Virus record (IMG/VR): IMGVR_UViG_3300013368_000005
Location: 96,001-160,000 of that record
From: a virus
Taxonomy: Duplodnaviria > Caudoviricetes
Length of the DNA: 64,000 bases
Strand: one strand, 5' to 3'
Shown here: piece by piece, positions 17,266 through 30,044 of the stretch
Numbering within the stretch: position 1 is the first letter of the stretch
Layout: every line of letters begins with the position of its first letter
Position numbers and translations under genes: made by a program
Notes under the pieces: generated by a model
The model's database searches: none
Seen by the model: only the letters and a program-made list of their open reading frames with translations
What the model was told of the DNA's origin: nothing

Positions 17266-18162
17266 ATGTTTAACAATTATGGACAACCACAACAAAACTT
17301 ATACGGTGCTGGATTCGGTAATGGAATGGGTATGCAATATGCACCTGTAAACCAAGCTAAAATGACTCAGCCACTAAGTGAAGAGGATAAGAAATTATTA
17401 AGACAAAATTCAGATAATTTCAGTTTACAAGTTTCACCAATGGAGCTAAAAAGATCAGTATGTACCCACAAAGATGCTAATAAAATAACATTAATTGATA
17501 ATGGAAATGGAACAGCTACATGCACAATTTGTGGTGCAACATTTGAACTAGTAAATGAGCCAGAAGAGCAAATCGAAGGATTAACTAGAGATGTAATCAG
17601 TGTATTACAATCTATTAAAACTTACTTCTTAGATATACCAGAGCAGTACGCAAATGAATACTTTAAAGTAATTCCACTATTAGAGAAATTACCAGTATTC
17701 TATAAAATGGCTAGAAGTAACTGGAGAAGATATGAGAATGCAAATCCATTACAAAATGCTAATGGAATGTACTCTTACAACTTACTTCAAAATATAACAA
17801 GCCCTGGATATGCACAAGCACCAGGAATGATGCCACAAATGTCTCCATATGGAGCACCAATGGGAACACCAGCAATGGGTGGATATCCACAACAATCACC
17901 AGATATGTTCGGAGGATACCCACAACAACAACAACAATCTTATGGAAATAACCCATTTGGAAATTATGGTCAAGCACCAGCTCCAGGATACAATCCAGCA
18001 TTAGATGGTAGTTATGGTCAACAACAAGGTTATGGTCAAGCACCAGCTCCACAACCAACAAGTGGACCACAACCAACAGCAAGTTACCAACCACAAAATT
18101 TAAATAATACAGAGCGTGTAGAAAACGGACAAGTTAAAACTACAGCTACAATGACAGTATAA
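17266..18162 (+). CDS. Zn-ribbon protein with long Q/G/Y/P/M-rich disordered regions
   Basis: CTH...CTIC core flanked by low-complexity segments. AAGGAGG RBS, own early promoter and terminator. Confidence 0.85.
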   Translation: MFNNYGQPQQNLYGAGFGNGMGMQYAPVNQAKMTQPLSEEDKKLLRQNSDNFSLQVSPMELKRSVCTHKDANKITLIDNGNGTATCTICGATFELVNEPEEQIEGLTRDVISVLQSIKTYFLDIPEQYANEYFKVIPLLEKLPVFYKMARSNWRRYENANPLQNANGMYSYNLLQNITSPGYAQAPGMMPQMSPYGAPMGTPAMGGYPQQSPDMFGGYPQQQQQSYGNNPFGNYGQAPAPGYNPALDGSYGQQQGYGQAPAPQPTSGPQPTASYQPQNLNNTERVENGQVKTTATMTV

Positions 18163-18172
18163 TATAATTAAA

Positions 18173-18206
18173 GAAGATGTAAGAGAAATCTTACATCTTC
18201 ATTTTA
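18173..18206 (+). terminator. Intrinsic terminator
   Basis: GAAGATGTAAGA-gaaa-TCTTACATCTTC followed by a T-rich tail. Confidence 0.75.
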
Positions 18207-18246
18207 TTGTTATTATAACATATTTTTTCTATGTTACTGGTTATTG

Positions 18247-18280
18247 AATTATATATTATATAATTGATAACAAGATAATA
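18247..18280 (+). promoter_or_regulatory. Tandem early (18247-18260) and late (18269-18280) promoters of gyrB
   Basis: AATTATATATTATA followed by AACAagataaTA. Confidence 0.7.
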
Positions 18281-18304
18281 ATGACGATGAAGGAGGATTT
18301 AGGG

Positions 18305-20635
18305 ATGGCTAAAAATGATATGGAGCAAAAAATAAAAGAATACGCTGAACAGATAAAAACATTAGAAGATTTTGTTGCAGCAGTAAGAAAGATGCCTGGA
18401 ATGTATATAGGCATGATAGGTAACAGAGGATTTTTAAACATGATACGAGAAATCTTTCAAAACTCAATTGATGAGTTGATTAAGAAGGATTCTCCTTGTG
18501 ATTATATTATGTTAACATATGATGAAAGAAGTCATATAACAACAGTAGAGGATAACGGTAGAGGCATTCCTTTTGGATTAATGGAGAGAATATATGCATC
18601 TCAGCATACATCTTCAAATTACGAAAAGAAACCAGGAGAGTATTCGAGTGGACTCCACGGTGTAGGTGCAAAAGTTACAAATGCATTAGCTGAATTTTTC
18701 TATGTAGAATCTTTTATATTAGGAGATGCAAGAAGAATAGAATTCCATGATGGAAAACCATGGAAAAAGGGAGAAATAAAAATTCCCAATAAAGGAAATA
18801 AACAAGGAACTATAGTAACATTTAAACCAACATACGATGTTATGGGCGAACTTACATTATCTGTTCAACAAGTATTTAACTTAGTTAGAATGGTTATGTT
18901 CTTAACTCCTATAGGATCAAAATGTCTATTCAAAGGTATATTGGCAGATGGCTCAATATTCCAAGAAGAGATAGTAAACCAAGACGGTATAATAACAGAC
19001 TTAATATTAAAGACTGTAGCTCCGTTAGTTAAACCAATATGTATATCAGATGATACAGGATTTATGAAGGCAGATATAGCTTTCACTTATGACTCCAACG
19101 ATCTTGATGTAGAACAAATTACTTCATTCAGTAACTGCTGCCCGACTACAAGTGGTACACATGTTATTGGATTTATAGATGGATTATGTAAATTCTTTAG
19201 AGAACACATGAACAAAATATACTTAGCAGGAAATAAGAAACAACTTACGGTAGTTAATAATGATATAAAAACAGGATTAAAAGCTATTGTTTCAGTTGCA
19301 CATTTAACTCCTATATTCGAAGGACAAGCTAAAGACGTTTTAGGAAATGAAGATATGATACCATTTGTCAGAGATACAGTTTATAACTCTCTAGATAAAT
19401 GGTCTAAAGAAAATGCATCCGATCTACAAAAAGTTTGTAAATACCTCAAAGAAGTTGCAGAGATCAGAGTGAATATGGATAAAGAGAAAGACAAAATTGT
19501 TAACAAATTTGCCACTTCTAGTTTATCTAAAGGTTTACCTCGTAAGTATATAAGACCAAATGATATGAGAGCAGATGATCTTGAATTTATAGTAGTTGAA
19601 GGAGATTCTGCTGGTGGTTCGGCTAGGAATAATAGGTGTAAAAGAAATCAAGGTATATTCCCAATTAGAGGTAAAATGCCTAATGCATTTACAACAGAAA
19701 GAGCTAAGTTTCTTAGCAATGAAGAAGTTCAAGGAATAATTGCTATTTTAGGTGCAGGTTATGGTAGAAAATTTGATATAACCAAATGTAAATATAAGAA
19801 AATAATATTTATGGCAGATGCAGATCCAGATGGAAAACACATAAGAACTCTATTATTAAGATTTTTCTTATTATACTTTAGACCATTAGTAGAAGCAGGA
19901 AGGGTGTATGCATCAATACCACCTCTTTATGGATTAGACCTTGGTAAGAAAAAGAAAGAATATTTTACTGATAGAATAGATTATGTTGCATATATTCAAA
20001 AACAATTTTCTAAAGTTAATGAAATAACTACAGTAAGAGATGGCTCAATGACTCAAAAGGAAATTGTAAAAATATTATATAACAATATTGATTATACGTA
20101 TCAATTAGAAAAGGTTGCTAATACTTATGCAATAGACCCATATTTATTAGAGGACATAATCATTAATAGAAATTTACCAAGTGACAAATTATATAAAATA
20201 CTTCATAAAAAATATAGATTTATTGAGGATATCGAAAATAAAAATAATACTATAATCATTAAAGGATTAGTAAATAATAAATATCAGACATTATTTTTAA
20301 ATGATAAAATTACATCTAATATACAAGAAGTATTAAATATATTAGATATTAATGATAGTTTTCAATATAAAGTAAATGGGGAATTATGTTCTATTTATAC
20401 TCTTATGAAAAAATTTGAATCAAGTTCTCCAGCATCTATAACAAGATATAAGGGATTAGGAGAAATGAACGGTAAGGTATTAGCTGATACTACTATATTA
20501 CCTGATAATAGAACTTTAATTCAATATACACCTGAATCTATAGAAGAGGAAATTAATTCTATTAGATATTTTGAATCTAATTTAAAAGAGTTAATAAAGG
20601 GTACTAAAGCTACAAGATTCGATTTAATGGGTTAA
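18305..20635 (+). CDS. gyrB: DNA gyrase/type IIA topoisomerase subunit B
   Basis: VRKMPGMYIG, EDNGRGIP, GLHGVG, VEGDSAGG, PIRGK, DADPDG, RYKGLGEM. Confidence 0.96.
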   Translation: MAKNDMEQKIKEYAEQIKTLEDFVAAVRKMPGMYIGMIGNRGFLNMIREIFQNSIDELIKKDSPCDYIMLTYDERSHITTVEDNGRGIPFGLMERIYASQHTSSNYEKKPGEYSSGLHGVGAKVTNALAEFFYVESFILGDARRIEFHDGKPWKKGEIKIPNKGNKQGTIVTFKPTYDVMGELTLSVQQVFNLVRMVMFLTPIGSKCLFKGILADGSIFQEEIVNQDGIITDLILKTVAPLVKPICISDDTGFMKADIAFTYDSNDLDVEQITSFSNCCPTTSGTHVIGFIDGLCKFFREHMNKIYLAGNKKQLTVVNNDIKTGLKAIVSVAHLTPIFEGQAKDVLGNEDMIPFVRDTVYNSLDKWSKENASDLQKVCKYLKEVAEIRVNMDKEKDKIVNKFATSSLSKGLPRKYIRPNDMRADDLEFIVVEGDSAGGSARNNRCKRNQGIFPIRGKMPNAFTTERAKFLSNEEVQGIIAILGAGYGRKFDITKCKYKKIIFMADADPDGKHIRTLLLRFFLLYFRPLVEAGRVYASIPPLYGLDLGKKKKEYFTDRIDYVAYIQKQFSKVNEITTVRDGSMTQKEIVKILYNNIDYTYQLEKVANTYAIDPYLLEDIIINRNLPSDKLYKILHKKYRFIEDIENKNNTIIIKGLVNNKYQTLFLNDKITSNIQEVLNILDINDSFQYKVNGELCSIYTLMKKFESSSPASITRYKGLGEMNGKVLADTTILPDNRTLIQYTPESIEEEINSIRYFESNLKELIKGTKATRFDLMG

Positions 20636-20688
20636 TCCCATTAATCGAATACTTTGTATATAACGTATAATTAGGAAGGTGATTTAAT

Positions 20689-23046
20689 ATGGCAGAAACT
20701 ATAATTAAAAAGAATATATTAGAACAATACAAGGATGACTTAAGAGGATATGCTTTATATGCTAATAGAATGAGGGTAGCCCCAAATATTAAGGATGGGC
20801 TTAAACCAGTTCATAGAAGAATATTACAAGCAGGATATTTTGATGAAAAAGCTACATCTCGTTTTGTAAAATCTGCAGCTTTTACAGGAACTATTATGAG
20901 AAAGTATCATCCACATGGAGATGCTGGGGTTTATGATGCAATGAAGGGTATGCTAAATTGGTTTGAAATAAATATACCTTTATTAGATGGGGATAGTAAC
21001 TGGGGAAACTTTCAAGGTGCTAAACAAGCGGCTGCTAGATATACCGAAGCAAAGATATCTGATTTTACTAAAAAATATGTAATTAAAGAAGCAGATGAAG
21101 TTAGAGCGGTTGTAGACTGGATAGAAACTTATGATAATAGAAATCTAGAAATGGAGTATATGCCAATAAAAATACCTCTATTATTAATAAACGGTTGTTA
21201 TGGAATAGGCATAGGAATGTCTTGTTCAATACCTCCACACAATGGCAGAGATGTAATAGATGCTACATTACGTTTAATAGATGATCCGAGTACAGAAGTT
21301 ATTATTCCACCAGATCAAAATATGAAATGTGATATAATAAAAACAAATTTCAAAAGTATCTGTAACCTTGGTCAAGGAAAATTTGTAGTCAGAGGTCATA
21401 TAGATATTATAGATTATAACGGTAAACAAGCTTTATCCATAAAATCTACACCAGATATGGTGTATTCGCAAAAAATAATAGATAAGATAGATGAATTATT
21501 AGAACAAAAGAAAATAATAGGTATTATTGATCATGCAGAAGAATCAACAGAAGAACAGATGAATCATGTTTTTATATTAAAGAGTGGTACAGATCCTGAG
21601 TATATCAAACAATCAATATACAGTATGACGGATATGCAAAAAACAATTAGTGTAAATTTTGAAGTACTTGAAAATAATAACCCAATAAGAATGTCTTATA
21701 AATCATATCTACTATCATTTATAGAATTTAGGAAGATATGTAAATTTAGATATTATTGTAATAAACTTCAAAGAGTCCAAACTAAATTACATGAAAAAGA
21801 AATTTATATAAATGTAATACAAAGTGGAATGATAGATGAAATAATTAATACTATAAAAAATCTTACTGATGATAATGAGAAAAAATGTATAGAGTACTTT
21901 GTTAAACTACTTGGTGTTACGGACCTACAGGCTTCATTTATATTACACTCACAAATACTAGATTTATCCGTAGGAAAACTTAATAAATATATAAATGAAC
22001 AAATGGCATTAAAAGTTGAGCAAGATCTATATATGAAAAAAGTATTAAGTGATGAAGAATTATTGAAAGAGATAAAACAAGAACTTTTAGAATTTAGAGA
22101 AGAATATGGGAAACCAAGAAATTGTAGAATTATAGATTCTTCTGAATTAACTGATATACCTGCAGGGGAATTTAAAGTTATATTTACAGATAATAACTAT
22201 ATTAAGAAAGTTCCTGCAAATGAAAGTATAGGTAGTTTTAAAGGGGATGCTCCTACCCATGTATTAAAAGTTGATAATAGAGAAAGCGTTCTTATCTTTG
22301 ATGAACAAGGTAAAGCATTCAAACTTCCAATACACAAAATTCCTATTAGTGATAGAAAAAGTAATGGTACAGATATAAGATTAGTAGTTAAGAAGTTAAC
22401 ATCAAATATTTGTACTGTGTTATACGAACCAAAAGTAAAAGAGTTATCTAATAACTTAAGAAAATACTTTGTAACTTTACTTACAGCAGGTGGAAATGTT
22501 AAGAAACTAGATTTAGAAGATATATTATCCGTACCACCTTCAGGGATAATCTGTATGAAACTAGATCCAGGTGATTATATTAAAAATATATCTTTAGTAG
22601 GAGAAGGAATTGACGTTATTGTTTATTCTAAAAATAAAGCACTTAGAATGGGTATAGATGAAATTCCACATCAAAAAAGAAATACTAAAGGTCAAAGAGC
22701 TATGATAGAAAGTTCTGTTGATGGATTATCCATAATAAAACCAAATACAACAGATATTGTTGTTATAACCGAATCAGGAAAAATAAATAGATTTGATGTA
22801 ATAGCTCTTCCTAAGCTTGGAAGGAATAAAAGTGGTTCTAAGGTTATTAAACTTGGTAAATCTGATTCTATCAAATGTATATATGGAGCTAATATTAATG
22901 ATATCCTTAGACTCTACACTAGAGATGAAAAAATAGATATCAATATAGCAGATATTCCATTAGGCAGCTCTATTAGCGGTGGAAATAAAATGATACCATT
23001 GAAAAATGATAATATAATAAGATGTGAGATTAGAAAGAGAGTATAA
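20689..23046 (+). CDS. gyrA: DNA gyrase/type IIA topoisomerase subunit A
   Basis: DGLKPVHRR, YHPHGD, catalytic AAARYTE, C-terminal beta-pinwheel with GyrA-box-like QKRNTKG. Confidence 0.95.
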   Translation: MAETIIKKNILEQYKDDLRGYALYANRMRVAPNIKDGLKPVHRRILQAGYFDEKATSRFVKSAAFTGTIMRKYHPHGDAGVYDAMKGMLNWFEINIPLLDGDSNWGNFQGAKQAAARYTEAKISDFTKKYVIKEADEVRAVVDWIETYDNRNLEMEYMPIKIPLLLINGCYGIGIGMSCSIPPHNGRDVIDATLRLIDDPSTEVIIPPDQNMKCDIIKTNFKSICNLGQGKFVVRGHIDIIDYNGKQALSIKSTPDMVYSQKIIDKIDELLEQKKIIGIIDHAEESTEEQMNHVFILKSGTDPEYIKQSIYSMTDMQKTISVNFEVLENNNPIRMSYKSYLLSFIEFRKICKFRYYCNKLQRVQTKLHEKEIYINVIQSGMIDEIINTIKNLTDDNEKKCIEYFVKLLGVTDLQASFILHSQILDLSVGKLNKYINEQMALKVEQDLYMKKVLSDEELLKEIKQELLEFREEYGKPRNCRIIDSSELTDIPAGEFKVIFTDNNYIKKVPANESIGSFKGDAPTHVLKVDNRESVLIFDEQGKAFKLPIHKIPISDRKSNGTDIRLVVKKLTSNICTVLYEPKVKELSNNLRKYFVTLLTAGGNVKKLDLEDILSVPPSGIICMKLDPGDYIKNISLVGEGIDVIVYSKNKALRMGIDEIPHQKRNTKGQRAMIESSVDGLSIIKPNTTDIVVITESGKINRFDVIALPKLGRNKSGSKVIKLGKSDSIKCIYGANINDILRLYTRDEKIDINIADIPLGSSISGGNKMIPLKNDNIIRCEIRKRV

Positions 23047-23074
23047 CTCTCTTTCTTTTTTTAGGAGGGTTTTT

Positions 23075-23326
23075 ATGGATAATATTGAGAAAATGCAATA
23101 TGAAAACTTACGAAAATGTTTTAGCAACAATATAATAGATCCTATTCTAGGAAAAAATTATTATAATTTAGCATTAGACGTTTATGAATGCGACAGAATG
23201 ACTAGTGAAGATGTAAGGGATAAATTTATTGAACTTCATAAGAAATCAATTTTCTATAAGAATTTAGCAATTATAAATTCTGTTATTGGTATTATGACAT
23301 TTATATTATTAATAATTTTTAAATAA
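23075..23326 (+). CDS. Small protein with a C-terminal transmembrane helix
   Basis: AGGAGG RBS and hydrophobic C-terminus. Confidence 0.7.
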   Translation: MDNIEKMQYENLRKCFSNNIIDPILGKNYYNLALDVYECDRMTSEDVRDKFIELHKKSIFYKNLAIINSVIGIMTFILLIIFK

Positions 23327-23349
23327 AAAAGTATTAAGGGGGATAAGAC

Positions 23350-23532
23350 ATGGTAGAAGAAAAAATTGAGAAGCGTAAACCACATATTAATATTGGAACA
23401 ATAGGACACGTAGACCACGGTGGAACAACATTAACAGCAGCTATAGCATCGGTATTAGCAAATAATGGATATACAAAAGCATTCAGCGATGTCGATATAA
23501 ATAAGGCATCAAAGCATAATGAATATAAATAA
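23350..23532 (+). CDS. EF-Tu N-terminal fragment mini-protein (residues 1-59, P-loop K24G)
   Basis: [23 protein letters not shown] is near-identical to EF-Tu [23 protein letters not shown]. Own RBS (AAGGGGG) and clean stop. Confidence 0.85.
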
Positions 23533-23546
23533 AGGGGTGGATTAAT

Positions 23547-24062
23547 ATGAAAAAAATTAATACATTAATAATATCAGCATTTCCAGGTTGCGGTAAAACA
23601 TACGCATTTAAAAATTATAAATTTCAAAATGGTGTATTAGACAGTGATTCTAGTGAATTTAGTTGGGTTAAGGATGAAAATGGAAATAATACAAAAGAAA
23701 GGAATCCAGAATTTCCGACTAATTATATTAGACATATACAAGATAATATAGGTAAGGTAGATGTAATATTTGTATCTAGTCACGAAGTTGTTAGAGATGC
23801 TTTAAAAAATGCAAATATAAATTATGCATTAATTTATCCTATAAATACTGAAGAAGTTAAAGCAGACTTCTTAGACAGATATAAAAAAAGAGGAAATGCA
23901 GAACCTTTTATAGAATTCATAGATAAAAATTGGGATCACTTTATCGATCAAATGAATAATGATAATTTTCCAATAAAAATTGCAATTAAAAAGGATGTTT
24001 ATATTAATGAGAATATATTACGATATATATTTAAAATTTATAGAAATAAATTAATAAATTAG
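23547..24062 (+). CDS. Small P-loop NTPase/kinase-like protein
   Basis: Walker A AFPGCGKT, followed by LDSDSS. Confidence 0.75.
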   Translation: MKKINTLIISAFPGCGKTYAFKNYKFQNGVLDSDSSEFSWVKDENGNNTKERNPEFPTNYIRHIQDNIGKVDVIFVSSHEVVRDALKNANINYALIYPINTEEVKADFLDRYKKRGNAEPFIEFIDKNWDHFIDQMNNDNFPIKIAIKKDVYINENILRYIFKIYRNKLIN

Positions 24063-24193
24063 GATATAGAATAAGAGAAGTGAACTTCCACTTCTCTTAT
24101 GTCTAGTATATTTTGATTATAATTTAATTTTTATATGCATTAAGGGGACATATAAATTATATTTATGTTATTCGTGTAAAAGCATACTTTTTT

Positions 24194-24207
24194 GATAATA
24201 TATTATA
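24194..24207 (+). promoter_or_regulatory. Early-type phage promoter
   Basis: GATAATATATTATA. Confidence 0.65.
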
Positions 24208-24240
24208 GATATAATAAGAAATATAGAGGAGATAATTATT

Positions 24241-25182
24241 ATGAAAAAATTATTTAATAAGTTTGTAGATGACAGACTGAAAGAACAAAAAGAGGAAATA
24301 AAAAAAGAACCAACGAAAAAAGATATAATAATAGAATATTTTATATCACCTGCTATTTTTATAGTAATTTCTATTATTATTATTATATTAATAAACACAG
24401 GCTCTATGAAACAAATATTAGTTGGAACACAAAGTTTTATATTTCAAAATAGAACCGAATCAGTACAAGAAACAATGTTATCTGAAAACTCTGCAATAAC
24501 TAATAAGCAAATTGTAGAAGAAGCTGTAAACAATCCTAAATGGCAAACTACAATATCTATGCATGATTGGAATTTAAAATTAGTAACAAAAGTTACAGGA
24601 CAGATAGCTATAGATGATAAAATATCAAATATCGAAATACAATTTGATCAAAATAAACAAATGGCTATGTATTTAATAGATGGTAAAGGACAAATTGGAA
24701 TTGACAATTTTATGAAAACCATAGGTTCGGAAAAATTATTAGGATTATTAGTCAACACCTTGGGCAATGCTTCCGATACTAATGGGAAAAACGCATCTAC
24801 TCAACAAACGACTGTTAATACGACAATGCAAAATAATTCGCAGAAAATGTCCCCATCTAAAGATGATTTAATAAGTCTTGTATCTGATTCATATTTTTAT
24901 GATAATTGTTCAGGAACAATACAAGAAAATATGCAGGCTGTTTCTCAAGCCAGTTTAAACTGGGATGCAGGATCATTAGGCAATGGACAATATTATGTAT
25001 CTATAGTAGGAACCGTAATAGATGAGCCTAATAGTACTTGGCAAATAAATTTTTGTATAGATAATTACGAAAATGGTTCATTCTATGTAGATATGATGTT
25101 GGGGTATTCTAATGGTAGTTGTGTTTCACAAATTTCAGATATAAATGAATTGGAGAACATTATATCTAAATATGCTTGGTAA
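24241..25182 (+). CDS. Single-pass membrane protein with a large soluble domain
   Basis: Hydrophobic segment at about aa 33-52, T/Q/N-rich linker, own early promoter and terminator. Confidence 0.8.
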   Translation: MKKLFNKFVDDRLKEQKEEIKKEPTKKDIIIEYFISPAIFIVISIIIIILINTGSMKQILVGTQSFIFQNRTESVQETMLSENSAITNKQIVEEAVNNPKWQTTISMHDWNLKLVTKVTGQIAIDDKISNIEIQFDQNKQMAMYLIDGKGQIGIDNFMKTIGSEKLLGLLVNTLGNASDTNGKNASTQQTTVNTTMQNNSQKMSPSKDDLISLVSDSYFYDNCSGTIQENMQAVSQASLNWDAGSLGNGQYYVSIVGTVIDEPNSTWQINFCIDNYENGSFYVDMMLGYSNGSCVSQISDINELENIISKYAW

Positions 25183-25238
25183 AAAAAGAAAAGGGTATTA
25201 GAAATATACCCTTTTTTCTTTTTTATAAATTTACATAT

Positions 25239-25252
25239 GATTATATATTATA
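25239..25252 (+). promoter_or_regulatory. Early-type phage promoter
   Basis: GATTATATATTATA. Confidence 0.7.
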
Positions 25253-25294
25253 AACATGAATAATAATAAATATATAATCAAGGGGGATACAATA

Positions 25295-25642
25295 ATGGAA
25301 AATAAAATACTTAGACTACATTATACTGGAGATGTAGATAGAACTGTTAAGCCAGCAATGAGAAAATATTATTGTGATTTAACAGAAGAAATGAATGAGA
25401 TATTGGAAGATAAATGTTATATATCACAACCACCTAATGGTATCATTAAAGGGTTTGAGTTATATAGTATAAGAAATGATAAAGGAACTATATTAGACTT
25501 TATGACAGATAAAGATAAAACGATATCTACTATAAAAACACATTTTAAAGATTATATAGAAGTAGGATTTATTAAAAGAGATACAGCATTAAAACTAAAA
25601 CAAATAATATTAAAATACGTAGGTGCACAATTATCTCTATAA
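25295..25642 (+). CDS. Hypothetical protein
   Basis: AAGGGGG RBS and early promoter 25239-25252. Confidence 0.75.
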   Translation: MENKILRLHYTGDVDRTVKPAMRKYYCDLTEEMNEILEDKCYISQPPNGIIKGFELYSIRNDKGTILDFMTDKDKTISTIKTHFKDYIEVGFIKRDTALKLKQIILKYVGAQLSL

Positions 25643-25645
25643 GAA

Positions 25646-25680
25646 AAAGAGTATGCAAAAATGCATACTCTTTATTTTTT
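25646..25680. terminator. Bidirectional terminator between convergent genes
   Basis: AAAGAGTATGCA-aaaa-TGCATACTCTTT; same stem as 7409. Confidence 0.75.
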
Positions 25681-27018
25681 GTCACTTAATTTTGAATTGT
25701 ATATATCATCGATTTCTTTATAATTATCCTGATGTATAACTTTCTCCCTAAGATCAAATTCATTAAATTTATTATATATATAAGTATCATAAACCTTTTG
25801 TATCATATATCTATCTTGTTTATTTATCTTTTTGTTTTTATTCCTAAATATAATGTCTTCTAATTCTTTTCTAGTTTCCTTTATTTTATCTTTTATATTT
25901 TTTTCCATTTTGGGATCTAAATTAGCTTTAGCTAATTCTTTTTCTAAATAAGTTAATTGATCGTTTATTCTTTGTGCCGTTGTAGGATGAGCATCTATAC
26001 CAGTTGCTATAATTTGAATAGGTAATAAAATTATATTGATCAAATGTAAAATAAAACTAGATTTTTCATACGCATATTTTTCTATCATATTGATTTCTGG
26101 ATAATTCAATTTTACTAATACACTGGACAAATCTGAACTATATCCAAACATAGTAACAAAATTATCAGATACTTTTTCATCATTATACAAAAATAAACTC
26201 CTAATTATATTCATTGGATTGTATGCCTTTATTAATTTAATTATATTTAAATATAAATTTTTAAATATAATTAATGGATCATTTAATACAATTTTTAAAC
26301 TCTTAAATAGAATTTTATATGCATTAATTAATAACTTCATTGATTCTACACTATCTGCAAATATAATTAATTTATTAGCTCGTTGTTTGATAGCGTTGTC
26401 TATTTTTATCATTATTTTCTGAGTAAAGTTAAAATCTGTTGTAATATTTGTAGCTATATTTGCAAATAATTTAGGTTCAAATAATATTGCTATCAATATA
26501 TTTTCAATGGTATCTACAACTATCATAGCTTTCTGTACCATTGAAAATATAGCATGATTATTATTTAGTGATGATGAAAAATTATGTCCTATCTCATGTA
26601 AAATTATTGCTAAAATTTCTCTATCATTTATTTTTTCATTAAATAATAATCCTGAAGTTATAAATACTAAACAACTATAATCAACTTCTTTATCATATTT
26701 TATCGATTGTTTATCTGCCTTAAGATTTTTCCTAGTGTTGTAAACATCTAATTTATACCCTAAAGGTATTGTAAATGCATTCATAGAGCCGTTGTATTCT
26801 ATTTGTAAAGAGAATGAACCGAATCCAAAGATTTCTTCCACAATTCTATTGAATTCTAATACTTCTGGCAATGTATTAGCTTTCTTTATTAAGAAATTAT
26901 CTGATCTTAAGACTGATGCTCTTAGTTCACTTAGAGCCTTTTGCAATTGTTTTATTTCTTTAGTTTCACCAAAATAAACTTCATTTATCGACTCTTTTTT
27001 AATACCGTATATTCCCAT
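25672..27018 (-). CDS. Zinc metalloprotease (M48-like zincin), probably virion-associated
   Basis: ILHEIGH, DEKVSDNF and AHPTTAQRI motifs; late-type promoter. Confidence 0.75.
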   Translation of the reverse strand: MGIYGIKKESINEVYFGETKEIKQLQKALSELRASVLRSDNFLIKKANTLPEVLEFNRIVEEIFGFGSFSLQIEYNGSMNAFTIPLGYKLDVYNTRKNLKADKQSIKYDKEVDYSCLVFITSGLLFNEKINDREILAIILHEIGHNFSSSLNNNHAIFSMVQKAMIVVDTIENILIAILFEPKLFANIATNITTDFNFTQKIMIKIDNAIKQRANKLIIFADSVESMKLLINAYKILFKSLKIVLNDPLIIFKNLYLNIIKLIKAYNPMNIIRSLFLYNDEKVSDNFVTMFGYSSDLSSVLVKLNYPEINMIEKYAYEKSSFILHLINIILLPIQIIATGIDAHPTTAQRINDQLTYLEKELAKANLDPKMEKNIKDKIKETRKELEDIIFRNKNKKINKQDRYMIQKVYDTYIYNKFNEFDLREKVIHQDNYKEIDDIYNSKLSDKK

Positions 27019-27036
27019 ATTTATCACTCCTCTCCA

Positions 27037-27061
27037 TATTTATATGTTAAACATTACAATA
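27037..27061. promoter_or_regulatory. Back-to-back late-type promoters (minus 27037-27048, plus 27050-27061)
   Basis: AACAtataaaTA and AACAttacaaTA. Confidence 0.7.
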
Positions 27062-27081
27062 ATTATAAGGAGGTATGGAAA

Positions 27082-28257
27082 ATGAAGAATACAGATGCTT
27101 TGGTCAAAGAATTATATCCACTAGTGGCTAATAGTTTGGCTAAAAATACAAATAAACTTAAACAGTGTATTGCAAGATTTATAGAAAAAAGATCAAAAGA
27201 ACTATATGATACATGCCCTTGTGATCGTATATATTACGGGGTCGATGATAAACAAGATTTTTTTAAAACATTAGGTATACAAGAAAGTCAAGTAACAGAT
27301 ATTTTATCCAGAACGTATTATTGGGATATAGCTGCTTTTAACCCTAGAGCGGCTAAAGATGAACTTACTGTTACATTATTAATGGTTGTAAGATATTTTT
27401 ATCTTAAAAAAATGCAATCAGAATTAGAATTAAGTTCTATATATCTAGCTTTTTCTCCTAAATTTTATACATCTATTCATACTGGTCAATTTCCTAAATT
27501 TTCACCATCTGAATATAGACATATAATGGAATATGTGGTAAATAATCTATTAAACGAAAGATATGACTTAAAAAGTCAAGGAAGTGTATTTAAGGCTATA
27601 AAAAGCATATGTGTAACTTGGCTTAATACCTATGGAGATAAATTAAGAAATTCAGATGATGATGATGCTGTATATATGATTCAACAACTTCATAATAGAA
27701 TAAAATCATTTATGAAAAATATTGCAGAAGTGTATTATGAAGCATACAATAATAAAGAGTCATATTTAGTTTATGATAGTGATAATGTATCTGAAGATAA
27801 TTATCATATTGCAGATAACGATTCATTAAGGATAGAACGACATGTTGAAAAAACAATGTCATATATAAACAGCACTAGTGTAGATTATAGAATATGTAAA
27901 ATGGCTTCTGATAGTAACGTTAAAACAGATGAAGTTAAGGGTATAATAGAATTAATACTAAATGATAATACAAATGTTGTTTTAATTAAAGAATTAATAA
28001 GACTTATAATAACTGATTATTTTTCAGTAGATAAAATGAAAGATGTGCGAGATGTCAAATTTATATCATATTCTATAACACCAAAACCAAATTCAAAAAA
28101 TCCTATTATATTAAGACAAAAATCTATAATAGAGGCTTGGCTAAATGAAAACTCTCCAGCTTATAGAAAGAGAAAGTCTAGAGAAGCGACAAAATCAAGT
28201 TATCATAAATCTGTAACAACATATTTTGTATTGCTTATTCATGCAGCCAATAAATAA
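27082..28257 (+). CDS. Hypothetical protein (391 aa), late class
   Basis: AAGGAGG RBS before ATG 27082 and late promoter 27050-27061. Confidence 0.85.
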   Translation: MKNTDALVKELYPLVANSLAKNTNKLKQCIARFIEKRSKELYDTCPCDRIYYGVDDKQDFFKTLGIQESQVTDILSRTYYWDIAAFNPRAAKDELTVTLLMVVRYFYLKKMQSELELSSIYLAFSPKFYTSIHTGQFPKFSPSEYRHIMEYVVNNLLNERYDLKSQGSVFKAIKSICVTWLNTYGDKLRNSDDDDAVYMIQQLHNRIKSFMKNIAEVYYEAYNNKESYLVYDSDNVSEDNYHIADNDSLRIERHVEKTMSYINSTSVDYRICKMASDSNVKTDEVKGIIELILNDNTNVVLIKELIRLIITDYFSVDKMKDVRDVKFISYSITPKPNSKNPIILRQKSIIEAWLNENSPAYRKRKSREATKSSYHKSVTTYFVLLIHAANK

Positions 28258-28269
28258 GGAGGAATCATT

Positions 28270-29001
28270 ATGGAAATAACGAAAAAACAGAGACAAGAAG
28301 TAGAAGCTATAGTATATGAAACAATGAATATACTTGATAAGTCAGGAACTAATACAGAATATTATAAAAATAAATTTGCAAGTATGGATGATAAACAATT
28401 TTTAAAATATGTATCATTAAAATTTCCATACAGATTCCATGTTAAACCCTTTGAAGTAGAACCTACAATGGAAGATGTTTCTAAAGCATGTGACTTTTTA
28501 AATGTACCTCTATTAGAAAAAATTAAATTACCATATCTTTATACAAATAAAGATGGTGTATCGGTAAATTCTAAAGAATGTTTAGTAGGATATACACATT
28601 TAAAGAAGGTACAACAATTTGTAACTAAGAAAAACTCAATGTCTACAGACATATCCACAAGGGATATGAAGACTGGACTATTAACAGGGTTTGATAAAAA
28701 TGGTAAATCATCAGATAGGGAAATAGAATCACTTGCAGTTTTAGGATTAGAAAACACACTAGAAGAATTTTCTAAATATAAGGCAGATTATATGGGTGGA
28801 AAGAATATTATGTATAATGAAATTAATACAACTGGACAGGTATATTTAAAAGATATGCCAGTAGACCCAGATGATTCATTATCTAAAAAATTAACGAATG
28901 TGTATCTTTTAGGTGCAGGTATAAATTCCAACTTATTAAATCAAGATTATTATCTTCTTCATACATTAAATAAGAAAAATAGACAGGTTACTAGGGTATA
29001 A
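28270..29001 (+). CDS. RNA polymerase beta subunit C-terminal fragment (probably virion RNAP)
   Basis: VGYTHLKKVQQFVTKKNS...TGLLTG...GKSSDREIESL aligns to RpoB VGYMYMLKLxHLVDDKIH...TQQPLGG...GQRFGEMEVWAL; late operon. Confidence 0.7.
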   Translation: MEITKKQRQEVEAIVYETMNILDKSGTNTEYYKNKFASMDDKQFLKYVSLKFPYRFHVKPFEVEPTMEDVSKACDFLNVPLLEKIKLPYLYTNKDGVSVNSKECLVGYTHLKKVQQFVTKKNSMSTDISTRDMKTGLLTGFDKNGKSSDREIESLAVLGLENTLEEFSKYKADYMGGKNIMYNEINTTGQVYLKDMPVDPDDSLSKKLTNVYLLGAGINSNLLNQDYYLLHTLNKKNRQVTRV

Positions 29002-29020
29002 ATTTTGTAAAAAATACTAT

Positions 29021-29082
29021 AATTATATATTATAATACTGTAATAACAAATTAAATATTATAATTATACTAACAGACAATTA
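29021..29082 (+). promoter_or_regulatory. Tandem early (29021-29034) and late (29071-29082) promoters of the tubulin operon
   Basis: AATTATATATTATA and AACAgacaatTA. Confidence 0.7.
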
Positions 29083-29100
29083 AAAGGAGTTGATTAAATA

Positions 29101-29223
29101 ATGTCTGAAAAAAAAGAATATGGAGTGATAAATGAAATTGCATATTTAGGCAATGAATTTATACCAATGTCAGATGAAGATCAAAAGAAATTAAAGAAAC
29201 AAAAAGGAGATAAAGAGGAGTAA
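29101..29223 (+). CDS. 40-aa peptide (MSEKKEYGVINEIAYLGNEFIPMSDEDQKKLKKQKGDKEE)
   Basis: Manual translation. AAGGAG RBS, tandem early and late promoters upstream, hairpin over the stop. Confidence 0.7.
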   Translation: MSEKKEYGVINEIAYLGNEFIPMSDEDQKKLKKQKGDKEE

Positions 29224-29270
29224 AATCCTCTTTATCATCTCAATAATTATCTTAAAGGGGGAAAATAATA

Positions 29271-30044
29271 ATGAAAAACTTAAATAAAAAATTATTATTA
29301 ATAGTGTCGATAATGATGGTATTATTCGGAGGATACATATACCATTATGAAACAAAACTAGCAACTCAAAGAGAAGGATATTTAAAAGAAATACAAGCTT
29401 TAGAAGTTAAAGCTGAATTAGCAGAAAATGATGCAGCTGCATATAAATTTTTATATGCTCAATCAGATAAAGATATAAATAAAGAACAAGAGAAGACACA
29501 AGCGGTTGTAGCTGAATTAAATTCACTTAAAGAAGAAATTGCTTATTCTAAAGAAATAGAATATCAAAGAGCATCTCGTGGTGCTATGGATATGACACCT
29601 TTAACAGAATATGCAATACTGTCAGTGCAAGAAATGAATGAATGGATTGCTAGTCAAGCACCATCAAATAGCCCATTCATAGGAGAGGGTGAAGCTTTCT
29701 TAATAGCATCACAAGAATCAGGATTGAGTCCAAAATATATATTAGCTCATGCAGCTTTAGAATCTGAATGGGGTAATTCAGAAATATGTAGACTAAAGAA
29801 TAATTTCTTTGGTATAAATGCCACAAATATAAACCCAACAGAAAACGCAAAAGAATTTGATTCGTTTACTAGTGGAATAGTAGAAGGAGCTAAATGGATA
29901 GCTAGAAATTATACTAATAAAGGACAAGATACATTACAGTCTATGATATTCGGTTCTAAGGCATATGCACAATATGACGATGGAAGTCCAAATGATTCAT
30001 GGATTGGTAAAGTTGAATCAATAATGTCACATATTAATAAATAA
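29271..30044 (+). CDS. Membrane-anchored peptidoglycan hydrolase (GH73 glucosaminidase)
   Basis: N-terminal TM helix, coiled coil, HAALESEWG, NNFFGINA and YA motifs. Confidence 0.85.
   Translation: MKNLNKKLLLIVSIMMVLFGGYIYHYETKLATQREGYLKEIQALEVKAELAENDAAAYKFLYAQSDKDINKEQEKTQAVVAELNSLKEEIAYSKEIEYQRASRGAMDMTPLTEYAILSVQEMNEWIASQAPSNSPFIGEGEAFLIASQESGLSPKYILAHAALESEWGNSEICRLKNNFFGINATNINPTENAKEFDSFTSGIVEGAKWIARNYTNKGQDTLQSMIFGSKAYAQYDDGSPNDSWIGKVESIMSHINK

Follow-up and report, generated by a model that had tools for sequence, protein, structure and literature searches.

A phage mini-gene with the N-terminal head of EF-Tu, a degenerate P-loop and a possible role in host mimicry

Elongation factor Tu (EF-Tu) stands at the centre of several conflicts between phages and bacteria. 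The protease Lit cleaves EF-Tu between Gly59 and Ile60 within the RGITI motif, EF-Tu domains II–III bind the Gol peptide, which activates Lit, and several toxins need EF-Tu. A type IV Thoeris caspase cleaves the protein after R45 and R59 (bioRxiv 10.1101/2024.10.24.620036), and Avs7 grips it by domains II–III (PMC13581612). Lit, the Thoeris caspase and Avs7 mark EF-Tu as a hub of phage–host conflict, and their sites of action are in switch I (R45, R59, G59/I60) or domains II–III, whereas the mini-gene described here, P0001, copies the N-terminal arm, strand β1 and the G1 motif. P0001 lies in a 64,000-nucleotide stretch of DNA, hereafter the window, which makes up bases 96001–160000 of the 186,590-bp IMG/VR virus record IMGVR_UViG_3300013368_000005 (Caudoviricetes, 26.6% GC, no tRNA genes). 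Phage mimicry of host factors is a known strategy, and the target region and the mechanism considered here are new. No description of phage copies of the EF-Tu N-terminus was found in the literature searched, and databases label such open reading frames (ORFs) 'hypothetical' or 'EF-Tu GTP binding domain protein'. We found that EF-Tu heads detached from a GTPase body recur in many phages, and we propose, with a probability of roughly 0.55, that the mini-gene is a functional member of a class of phage EF-Tu-head mimics.

An earlier note on this DNA had described a 60-codon ORF with its own ribosome-binding site in an operon, a gapless alignment to the EF-Tu N-terminus, a changed P-loop lysine (GHVDHGKT to GHVDHGGT), diverged final residues and no remaining tuf sequence nearby, and each of these observations held. 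A phmmer search against PDB sequences returned EF-Tu of many bacteria, with residues 1–56 aligned and a best E value of 1.3e-14, and the Pfam family GTP_EFTU (PF00009) was matched over profile positions 1–32 of 188 with 30.2 bits (cut-off 26.5). Set without gaps against the 5′ ends of 74 bacterial tuf genes, the mini-ORF showed as many as 30 identities in the 40 positions 1–40 and 1–4 in the 20 positions 41–60. Bacterial EF-Tu has 28 positions of at least 90% conservation within residues 1–36; the mini-protein keeps 24 of them, the changes being F6I, R8K, K25G and T33A. Only I50 and A53 survive from the conserved switch-I block (I-D-x-A-P-E-E-x-x-R-G-I-T). At the DNA level, no sampled tuf was more than 72% identical to the head, and the tail reached 46% at best, a value between the 95th and 99th percentiles of shuffled tails. 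The remainder of tuf was absent from the whole record, where PF00009 matched at the place of the mini-ORF alone and the profiles of the other two domains, PF03144 and PF03143, matched nothing; the same search found matches in 14 of 14 control genomes. The gene that follows the mini-ORF belongs to a different family, phrog_4182.

The pattern GxxxxGK[ST] is broken by Gly25, at a position where Lys is at least 90% conserved, and the G2 (RGITI), G3 (DCPGH), G4 (NKCD) and G5 motifs are absent from the ORF, which ends at residue 60. The likeness to bacterial EF-Tu (PF00009, PF03144 and PF03143) thus consists of a gapless N-terminal arm, β1, GHVDHG and helix A, and the difference consists of a length of 60 amino acids (aa), the exchange of the P-loop Lys for Gly and the lack of G2–G5 and of domains II and III. 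Because the P-loop Lys and the G2–G5 motifs are missing, the mini-protein, judged from its sequence, cannot bind GTP in the manner of EF-Tu and cannot be a translational GTPase. Prediction with AlphaFold2 from the single sequence gave a mean predicted local distance difference test score (pLDDT) of 63 and formed only the helix 28–38. Hence the isolated mini-protein is predicted to be largely unstructured except for helix A, as would suit a peptide that acquires its fold upon binding a partner.

The end point of the gene deserves separate treatment. It had been placed at EF-Tu residue 59, and a host-derived peptide retained as a decoy for an EF-Tu-targeting defence protein such as Lit had been suggested. 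A gapless count does set the stop codon opposite Ile60, but the weak nucleotide identity of the tail makes the equivalence to residue 59 insecure. A decoy or inhibitor of Lit or of a different protease with a cleavage site in switch I of EF-Tu, encoded by a gene that ends at the Lit site, would agree with this count, with the 59-aa length of two other phage mini-ORFs and with cleavage in switch I by both Lit and the type IV Thoeris caspase; two longer Vibrio-phage members even keep ERGIT(I/V)S. However, the mini-protein has neither the scissile Gly-Ile nor the RGITI motif; Y-K-stop stands opposite R-G-I. As to the Thoeris caspase, F45 and Y59 stand opposite R45 and R59, and the sole Arg is R9. 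Furthermore, domains II–III are lacking, the tail shows hardly any likeness to tuf, the members of the various families end anywhere between 59 and 239 aa, and no U49 peptidase was found in the record. We consider a Lit decoy extremely unlikely. What stands of the suggestion is the retained non-GTPase EF-Tu peptide, which looks right, while its Lit part is unsupported. The lengths of 59, 59 and 60 aa are a curiosity rather than a feature of the class, because other members have 69–239 aa and unrelated tails.

Similar heads were identified in other phages by a tblastn search of the 60-aa protein against 50,697 GenBank phage records, with bacterial contamination among the matches set aside. EF-Tu-head ORFs of 59 aa were present in Aaphi23 (ORF27) and S1249 (D11S_2248), and likewise in Vibrio phage henriette (VPDG_00052) with homologues in 2.058.O (NVP2058O_086) and 3.058.O. 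Longer ones were present in Vibrio phages 207E48.1 (p0029, 126 aa) and 1.244.A (NVP1244A_125, 133 aa), and in Va2 (QPB08564, 195 aa) and 150E35-1 (P0089, 239 aa). A profile scan of IMG/VR yielded 80 loci, made up of 43 full-length EF-Tu genes, 15 ORFs cut by a contig end and 22 short complete ORFs; about 16 of the last, in eight families, were an EF-Tu head on an unrelated body and not a broken tuf. Taking GenBank phages and IMG/VR together, small non-GTPase EF-Tu-head proteins occur in at least 12 phage families. All share the core N-[VI]-G-T-I-G-H-[VI], the arm K-F-x-R-T-K-P is usual, and an alignment of nine phage proteins showed N14, G16, H20, V21 and G24 to be invariant. The second half of the P-loop varies, being GGT here and GGK, GLT, GFS, SRS, GAA, GAS, GRT, GKP, GKN or LPGG elsewhere. 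Canonical GK[ST] is kept in two families alone, and the Lys has been replaced repeatedly across families by G, L, F, R, A or S. Most tails are strongly basic, with an isoelectric point (pI) of 9.7–11.3 and a net charge of +5 to +12. Whether truncated tuf ORFs recur in phages, as the earlier note had wondered, can be answered in part: the heads and the loss of the Lys recur, but the end point generally does not.

Among these proteins, the mini-ORF product is the most complete head encountered, extending from the arm through helix A. The phrog_27465 type, to which Aaphi23 ORF27 and S1249 belong, resembles it in having 59–60 aa, an EF-Tu head and a place among early or DNA-metabolism genes. It differs in keeping GKT and a basic RENWRKWRQ tail in Aaphi23, the tails being unrelated, and the mini-ORF follows EF-Tu much further. 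The phrog_27465 profile (59 positions, function unannotated) matched mini-protein residues 1–32 with an E value of 5.4e-9. The Vibrio phage proteins share with the mini-protein an N-terminal head, a degenerate P-loop (GKP, GAA, GAS or GRT) and the lack of a GTPase body, whereas their strongly basic tails, the C-terminal motif of one group and the ERGIT of two members are absent from it. That C-terminal motif is basic, NPF..K..MRQ.N.R...KGK, and is common to Va2, 150E35-1, 207E48.1 and 1.244.A. The proteins of Va2 (L089:1486-2073) and 150E35-1 (L002:3001-3720) combine the head with the switch-I motif ERGIT(I/V)S, in which the Lit cleavage site lies, and lack G3–G5. Two further families of unannotated function, phrog_12626 (positions 31–61 of 109) and phrog_28329 (positions 30–57 of 69), match the head internally.

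One family joins the head to an enzyme. Two IMG/VR contigs of 59.7 and 18.2 kb encode a 179-aa protein (L154:2501-3040 and L157:2501-3040) composed of a head, a linker and a YbcO domain. Its P-loop reads GHVDHGGK, with the same change of Lys to Gly as in the mini-ORF, its linker REDWRKWRQ is like that of Aaphi23, and its YbcO putative nuclease domain is complete (PF07102, E = 3e-44). The fusion indicates that the head can be a module on an enzyme. The idea that Aaphi23 ORF27 and ORF28 are a split version of this protein was rejected; ORF27 matches its first 80 residues and ORF28 has no YbcO match. As to the full-length genes, 14 of the 43 IMG/VR loci lie on viral contigs of 200–620 kb (among L124–L150), and many phage full-length EF-Tu proteins have an unusual switch I, DIAKGGTVRD..KTVTI. 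Truncated copies may stem in part from giant phages that encode an EF-Tu themselves.

We estimated the ratio of non-synonymous to synonymous substitution rates (dN/dS) by the Nei–Gojobori method in six informative pairs from five families; the henriette pair was too similar. The ratio was 0.14 for Aaphi23 and S1249, 0.15 for 207E48.1 and 1.244.A, with dS saturated, 0.10 for L167 and L170, which lie on contigs of about 245 kb, 0.22 for L122 and L161, 0.07 for L160 and L166, and 0.1 for the YbcO fusions L154 and L157. In the first 21 codons of 207E48.1 and 1.244.A there were six synonymous and no non-synonymous changes. These values of 0.07–0.22 show that purifying selection maintains the EF-Tu head at the protein level in several phage lineages independent of one another. 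The dN/dS test that had been proposed for the mini-gene was therefore informative in other families, while this copy, being a singleton, offers only a contrast between its head and its tail.

That contrast was obtained against 58 bacterial tuf genes of the same length. The proportion of synonymous differences (pS) was saturated throughout, at 0.82–0.87 overall and 0.82 in the head. The proportion of non-synonymous differences (pN) in codons 2–40 was 0.206, compared to 0.129 between bacterial tuf genes, a factor of 1.6, and in codons 50–60 it was 0.448 compared to 0.077, nearly six times as high. The results suggest that the head is almost as constrained as that of real EF-Tu and the tail is not. 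A functionless tuf 5′ end, captured from a host or left by a phage-borne full-length EF-Tu gene and still open by chance, would also explain a singleton copy without an orthologue in which the catalytic Lys has been lost and the tail has degenerated. Many giant phages carry full-length EF-Tu homologues that could decay in this way, and viral contigs do contain clearly broken tuf fragments, among them L131 and L113. Yet the head has kept its 24 of 28 invariant residues although synonymous differences from each sampled tuf have reached saturation, and the difference between head and tail speaks against a remnant. The frame is open in a genome of 26.6% GC, where stop codons are frequent, and it has a strong Shine–Dalgarno sequence and tight operon packing. 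Moreover, purifying selection acts on heads of this same architecture in at least five phage families besides this one. We consider simple decay unlikely.

The mini-gene is intact and appears fit for translation. Our proposal is that its small non-GTPase product would imitate, with its first 40 or so residues, the arm, β1, the initial half of the P-loop and helix A of host EF-Tu. The head would act at the protein level, folding on a partner and presenting to it a mimic of the EF-Tu N-terminus. It would occupy a partner that normally recognises this region in EF-Tu, or in EF-Tu that is unfolded or nascent; a host factor, a defence protein and a phage enzyme are candidates. Engagement of the partner early in infection might then alter translation or blunt an EF-Tu-linked defence. 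Two sub-mechanisms can be envisaged. In the first, the head would be a rival of EF-Tu for binding to a factor that recognises this region. In the second, it would bind EF-Tu or its folding intermediates via the strand that they have in common, which would explain the conservation of a buried strand, the dispensable Lys and the fusion to a YbcO nuclease.

Direct binding can also be taken as a separate explanation, in which the head pairs with the sequence-identical β1 of EF-Tu or of other translational GTPases as they fold. Strand complementation or sequence-specific co-aggregation would leave EF-Tu poisoned, tethered or recruited, and the dead P-loop would make an inactive hybrid. The best-conserved part of the head is indeed the buried strand with half of the P-loop and not a surface patch, the Lys is dispensable, the prediction for the protein on its own is an unfolded chain, and the YbcO fusion is what would be expected of a targeting tag. 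But EF-Tu, at 6–10% of the proteome (PMC13581612), is so abundant that stoichiometric poisoning would be costly, and the intramolecular strand should out-compete a free one. As an explanation in its own right we regard this as distinctly unlikely.

The basic tails of most members raise a different possibility, namely a mini-protein that binds the ribosome or nucleic acids, with the GHVDHG loop and Lys-rich flanks contacting ribosomal RNA, transfer RNA (tRNA) or phosphate. Such a protein would resemble minimal β-(P-loop)-α polypeptides, and the GHVDHG loop in EF-Tu faces the sarcin–ricin loop and phosphates. The EF-Tu P-loop residue Asp21 and His84 contact the sarcin–ricin loop, and designed P-loop prototypes of 40–55 residues bind nucleic acids. 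The β-loop-α unit is whole in this copy. However, the copy itself is nearly neutral (net charge +1, pI 8.1), and families differ in the second half of the P-loop; we find binding to the ribosome or to nucleic acids highly improbable here.

A broader form of the mimicry proposal, which we put forward only tentatively and think less probable than its alternatives taken together, is that the peptide of arm, β1 and half P-loop is a portable module that many phage lineages have grafted onto tiny stand-alone ORFs, basic tails and a YbcO nuclease to engage one universally conserved host process in which the peptide is recognised. The module could capture nascent or unfolded EF-Tu in a sequence-specific manner, or blind a sensor or enzyme that inspects the EF-Tu N-terminus. 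If true, phages would possess a new class of devices that mimic the host and target its translation apparatus. A short EF-Tu peptide that does not bind GTP and is under selection on unrelated phage proteins would point to an undescribed interaction. The present copy extends the phenomenon to a low-GC large phage, beyond Vibrio, Pasteurellaceae and the other hosts found, and some members are carried by culturable phages (Aaphi23, S1249, henriette and 207E48.1).

Several points weigh against assigning the mini-gene to a class of functional EF-Tu-head mimics. It is a singleton, with no orthologue in IMG/VR, among GenBank phages or among the GTDB and JGI matches listed. The IMG/VR search with P0001 returned a full-length phage EF-Tu alone (L006), no GenBank phage matched the mini-ORF at the DNA level, and GTDB genomes and JGI metagenomes gave ordinary tuf genes of at most 67% identity among the matches listed, in scans that were seeded mostly on PHINIGTI and are thus biased and not exhaustive. 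A set of 5.8 billion proteins gave 369 short-protein matches, which were mostly bacterial EF-Tu at contig ends or with frameshifts and were set aside as noise. Selection on this copy is accordingly inferred, not measured, and the contrast between head and tail could reflect a recombination junction near residues 40–54, or an unsampled donor tuf, and not differential constraint. Its tail is not basic, with a net charge of +1 (pI 8.1) compared to +5 to +12 in most members. No protein of its operon, nor the M48-like protease encoded nearby, recurs near EF-Tu heads elsewhere. Finally, β1 is buried in folded EF-Tu, and a partner that sees native β1 is hard to name.

The arrangement of the locus is given in Table 1. 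The mini-ORF is the second gene of a four-gene same-strand unit bounded by two terminator-like hairpins; three such hairpins were observed, compared to 0.4 expected from shuffled sequences. Fourteen nucleotides (nt) separate its stop codon from the start of the next gene, which has its own AGGGG site. The GC content at third codon positions was 0.20 in the mini-ORF and 0.12–0.15 in its neighbours, a closeness suggesting that it is not a fresh capture. The mini-protein was identical in two Logan assemblies from different runs, one with DNA 100% identical over 6.8 kb and the other (L172) 99.7% identical over 12.2 kb, with 36 mismatches and one gap against window positions 17350–29533. The latter indicates that two strains of the phage were sampled. 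Since both encode the identical mini-protein, neither an assembly artefact nor a full-length gene with a frameshift can explain the ORF; the artefact or nearby frameshifted pseudogene allowed for in the earlier note appeared neither in these assemblies nor in the record-wide Pfam search.

Table 1. Features of the mini-gene locus, with positions counted from the first nucleotide of the window.
Feature	Position	Strand	Remarks
Type II topoisomerase pair	18281-23046	+	GyrB-like 784 aa, GyrA-like 785 aa; directly upstream
Terminator-like hairpin and T-run	23032..23056	+	3′ of the GyrA-like gene; upstream edge of the four-gene unit
83-aa ORF, hydrophobic C-terminus	23075..23326	+	Upstream neighbour of the mini-ORF; without family match
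Shine–Dalgarno AAGGGGG	23336..23342	+	7 nt before the mini-ORF ATG; read directly in the sequence
Mini-ORF P0001, 60 codons, ATG to TAA	23350..23532	+	EF-Tu N-terminal mini-protein, 60 aa
Head, codons 1–40	23350..23469	+	Corresponds to the EF-Tu N-terminal arm, strand β1, G1/P-loop and helix A
Degenerate P-loop GHVDHGGT	23404..23427	+	Sequence reading
Gly25 codon GGA	23422-23424	+	In place of the invariant Lys
Tail, codons 41–60	23470..23529	+	Marginal tuf homology; without RGITI motif
171-aa P-loop (GCGKT) protein	23547..24062	+	Downstream neighbour of the mini-ORF; phrog_4182, E 1.9e-51
313-aa ORF, N-terminal membrane segment	24241..25182	+	Fourth in the unit; without family match
Bidirectional terminator-like hairpin	25187..25217	+	Downstream edge of the four-gene unit
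451-aa protein, HEIGH motif	25672-27027	-	Peptidase_M48, 24.3 bits (cut-off 20.3); phrog_2767

Two further origins were examined for the mini-ORF and rejected. A duplicated end of a target gene at an attachment (att) site does not fit, since no tyrosine integrase was found in the 186,590-bp record, the mini-ORF lies between topoisomerase and accessory genes and not at the record end, and it shares no more than 72% DNA identity with any tuf sampled. An RNA element does not fit either; the ribosome-binding site is not masked by a stable hairpin (z +1.16), and no Rfam match was obtained at E values up to 0.1. PADLOC returned no match for P0001 or the neighbouring genes. The host of this low-GC large phage is probably a Firmicute. 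The earlier hint of a clostridial host, taken from an 11-residue segment of the mini-protein, proved weak; the best bacterial matches, at 55–65% identity, came from several phyla among the matches listed, in a search whose seeding on PHINIGTI biases the taxa that appear.

The GyrB-like and GyrA-like proteins encoded directly upstream of the unit are at most 28% identical to cultured-phage proteins, and the best GyrA homologues in cultured phages are only 26–28% identical, suggesting that the phage lineage is unstudied. On the other side, the gene of the 451-aa M48-like protein converges on the mini-gene operon; this protein is not a Lit/U49 peptidase. Within the operon, the 171-aa protein has a predicted kinase-like fold (Atlas predicted template modelling score, pTM, 0.87) and belongs to a family of phages and Bacillota whose function is unannotated. 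Its homologues, 54–60% identical, were found in eight other viral contigs (L174–L181), none of which has an EF-Tu-head gene near the homologue. Because these homologues sit in unrelated and differing neighbourhoods, the 171-aa P-loop gene looks like a mobile accessory gene.

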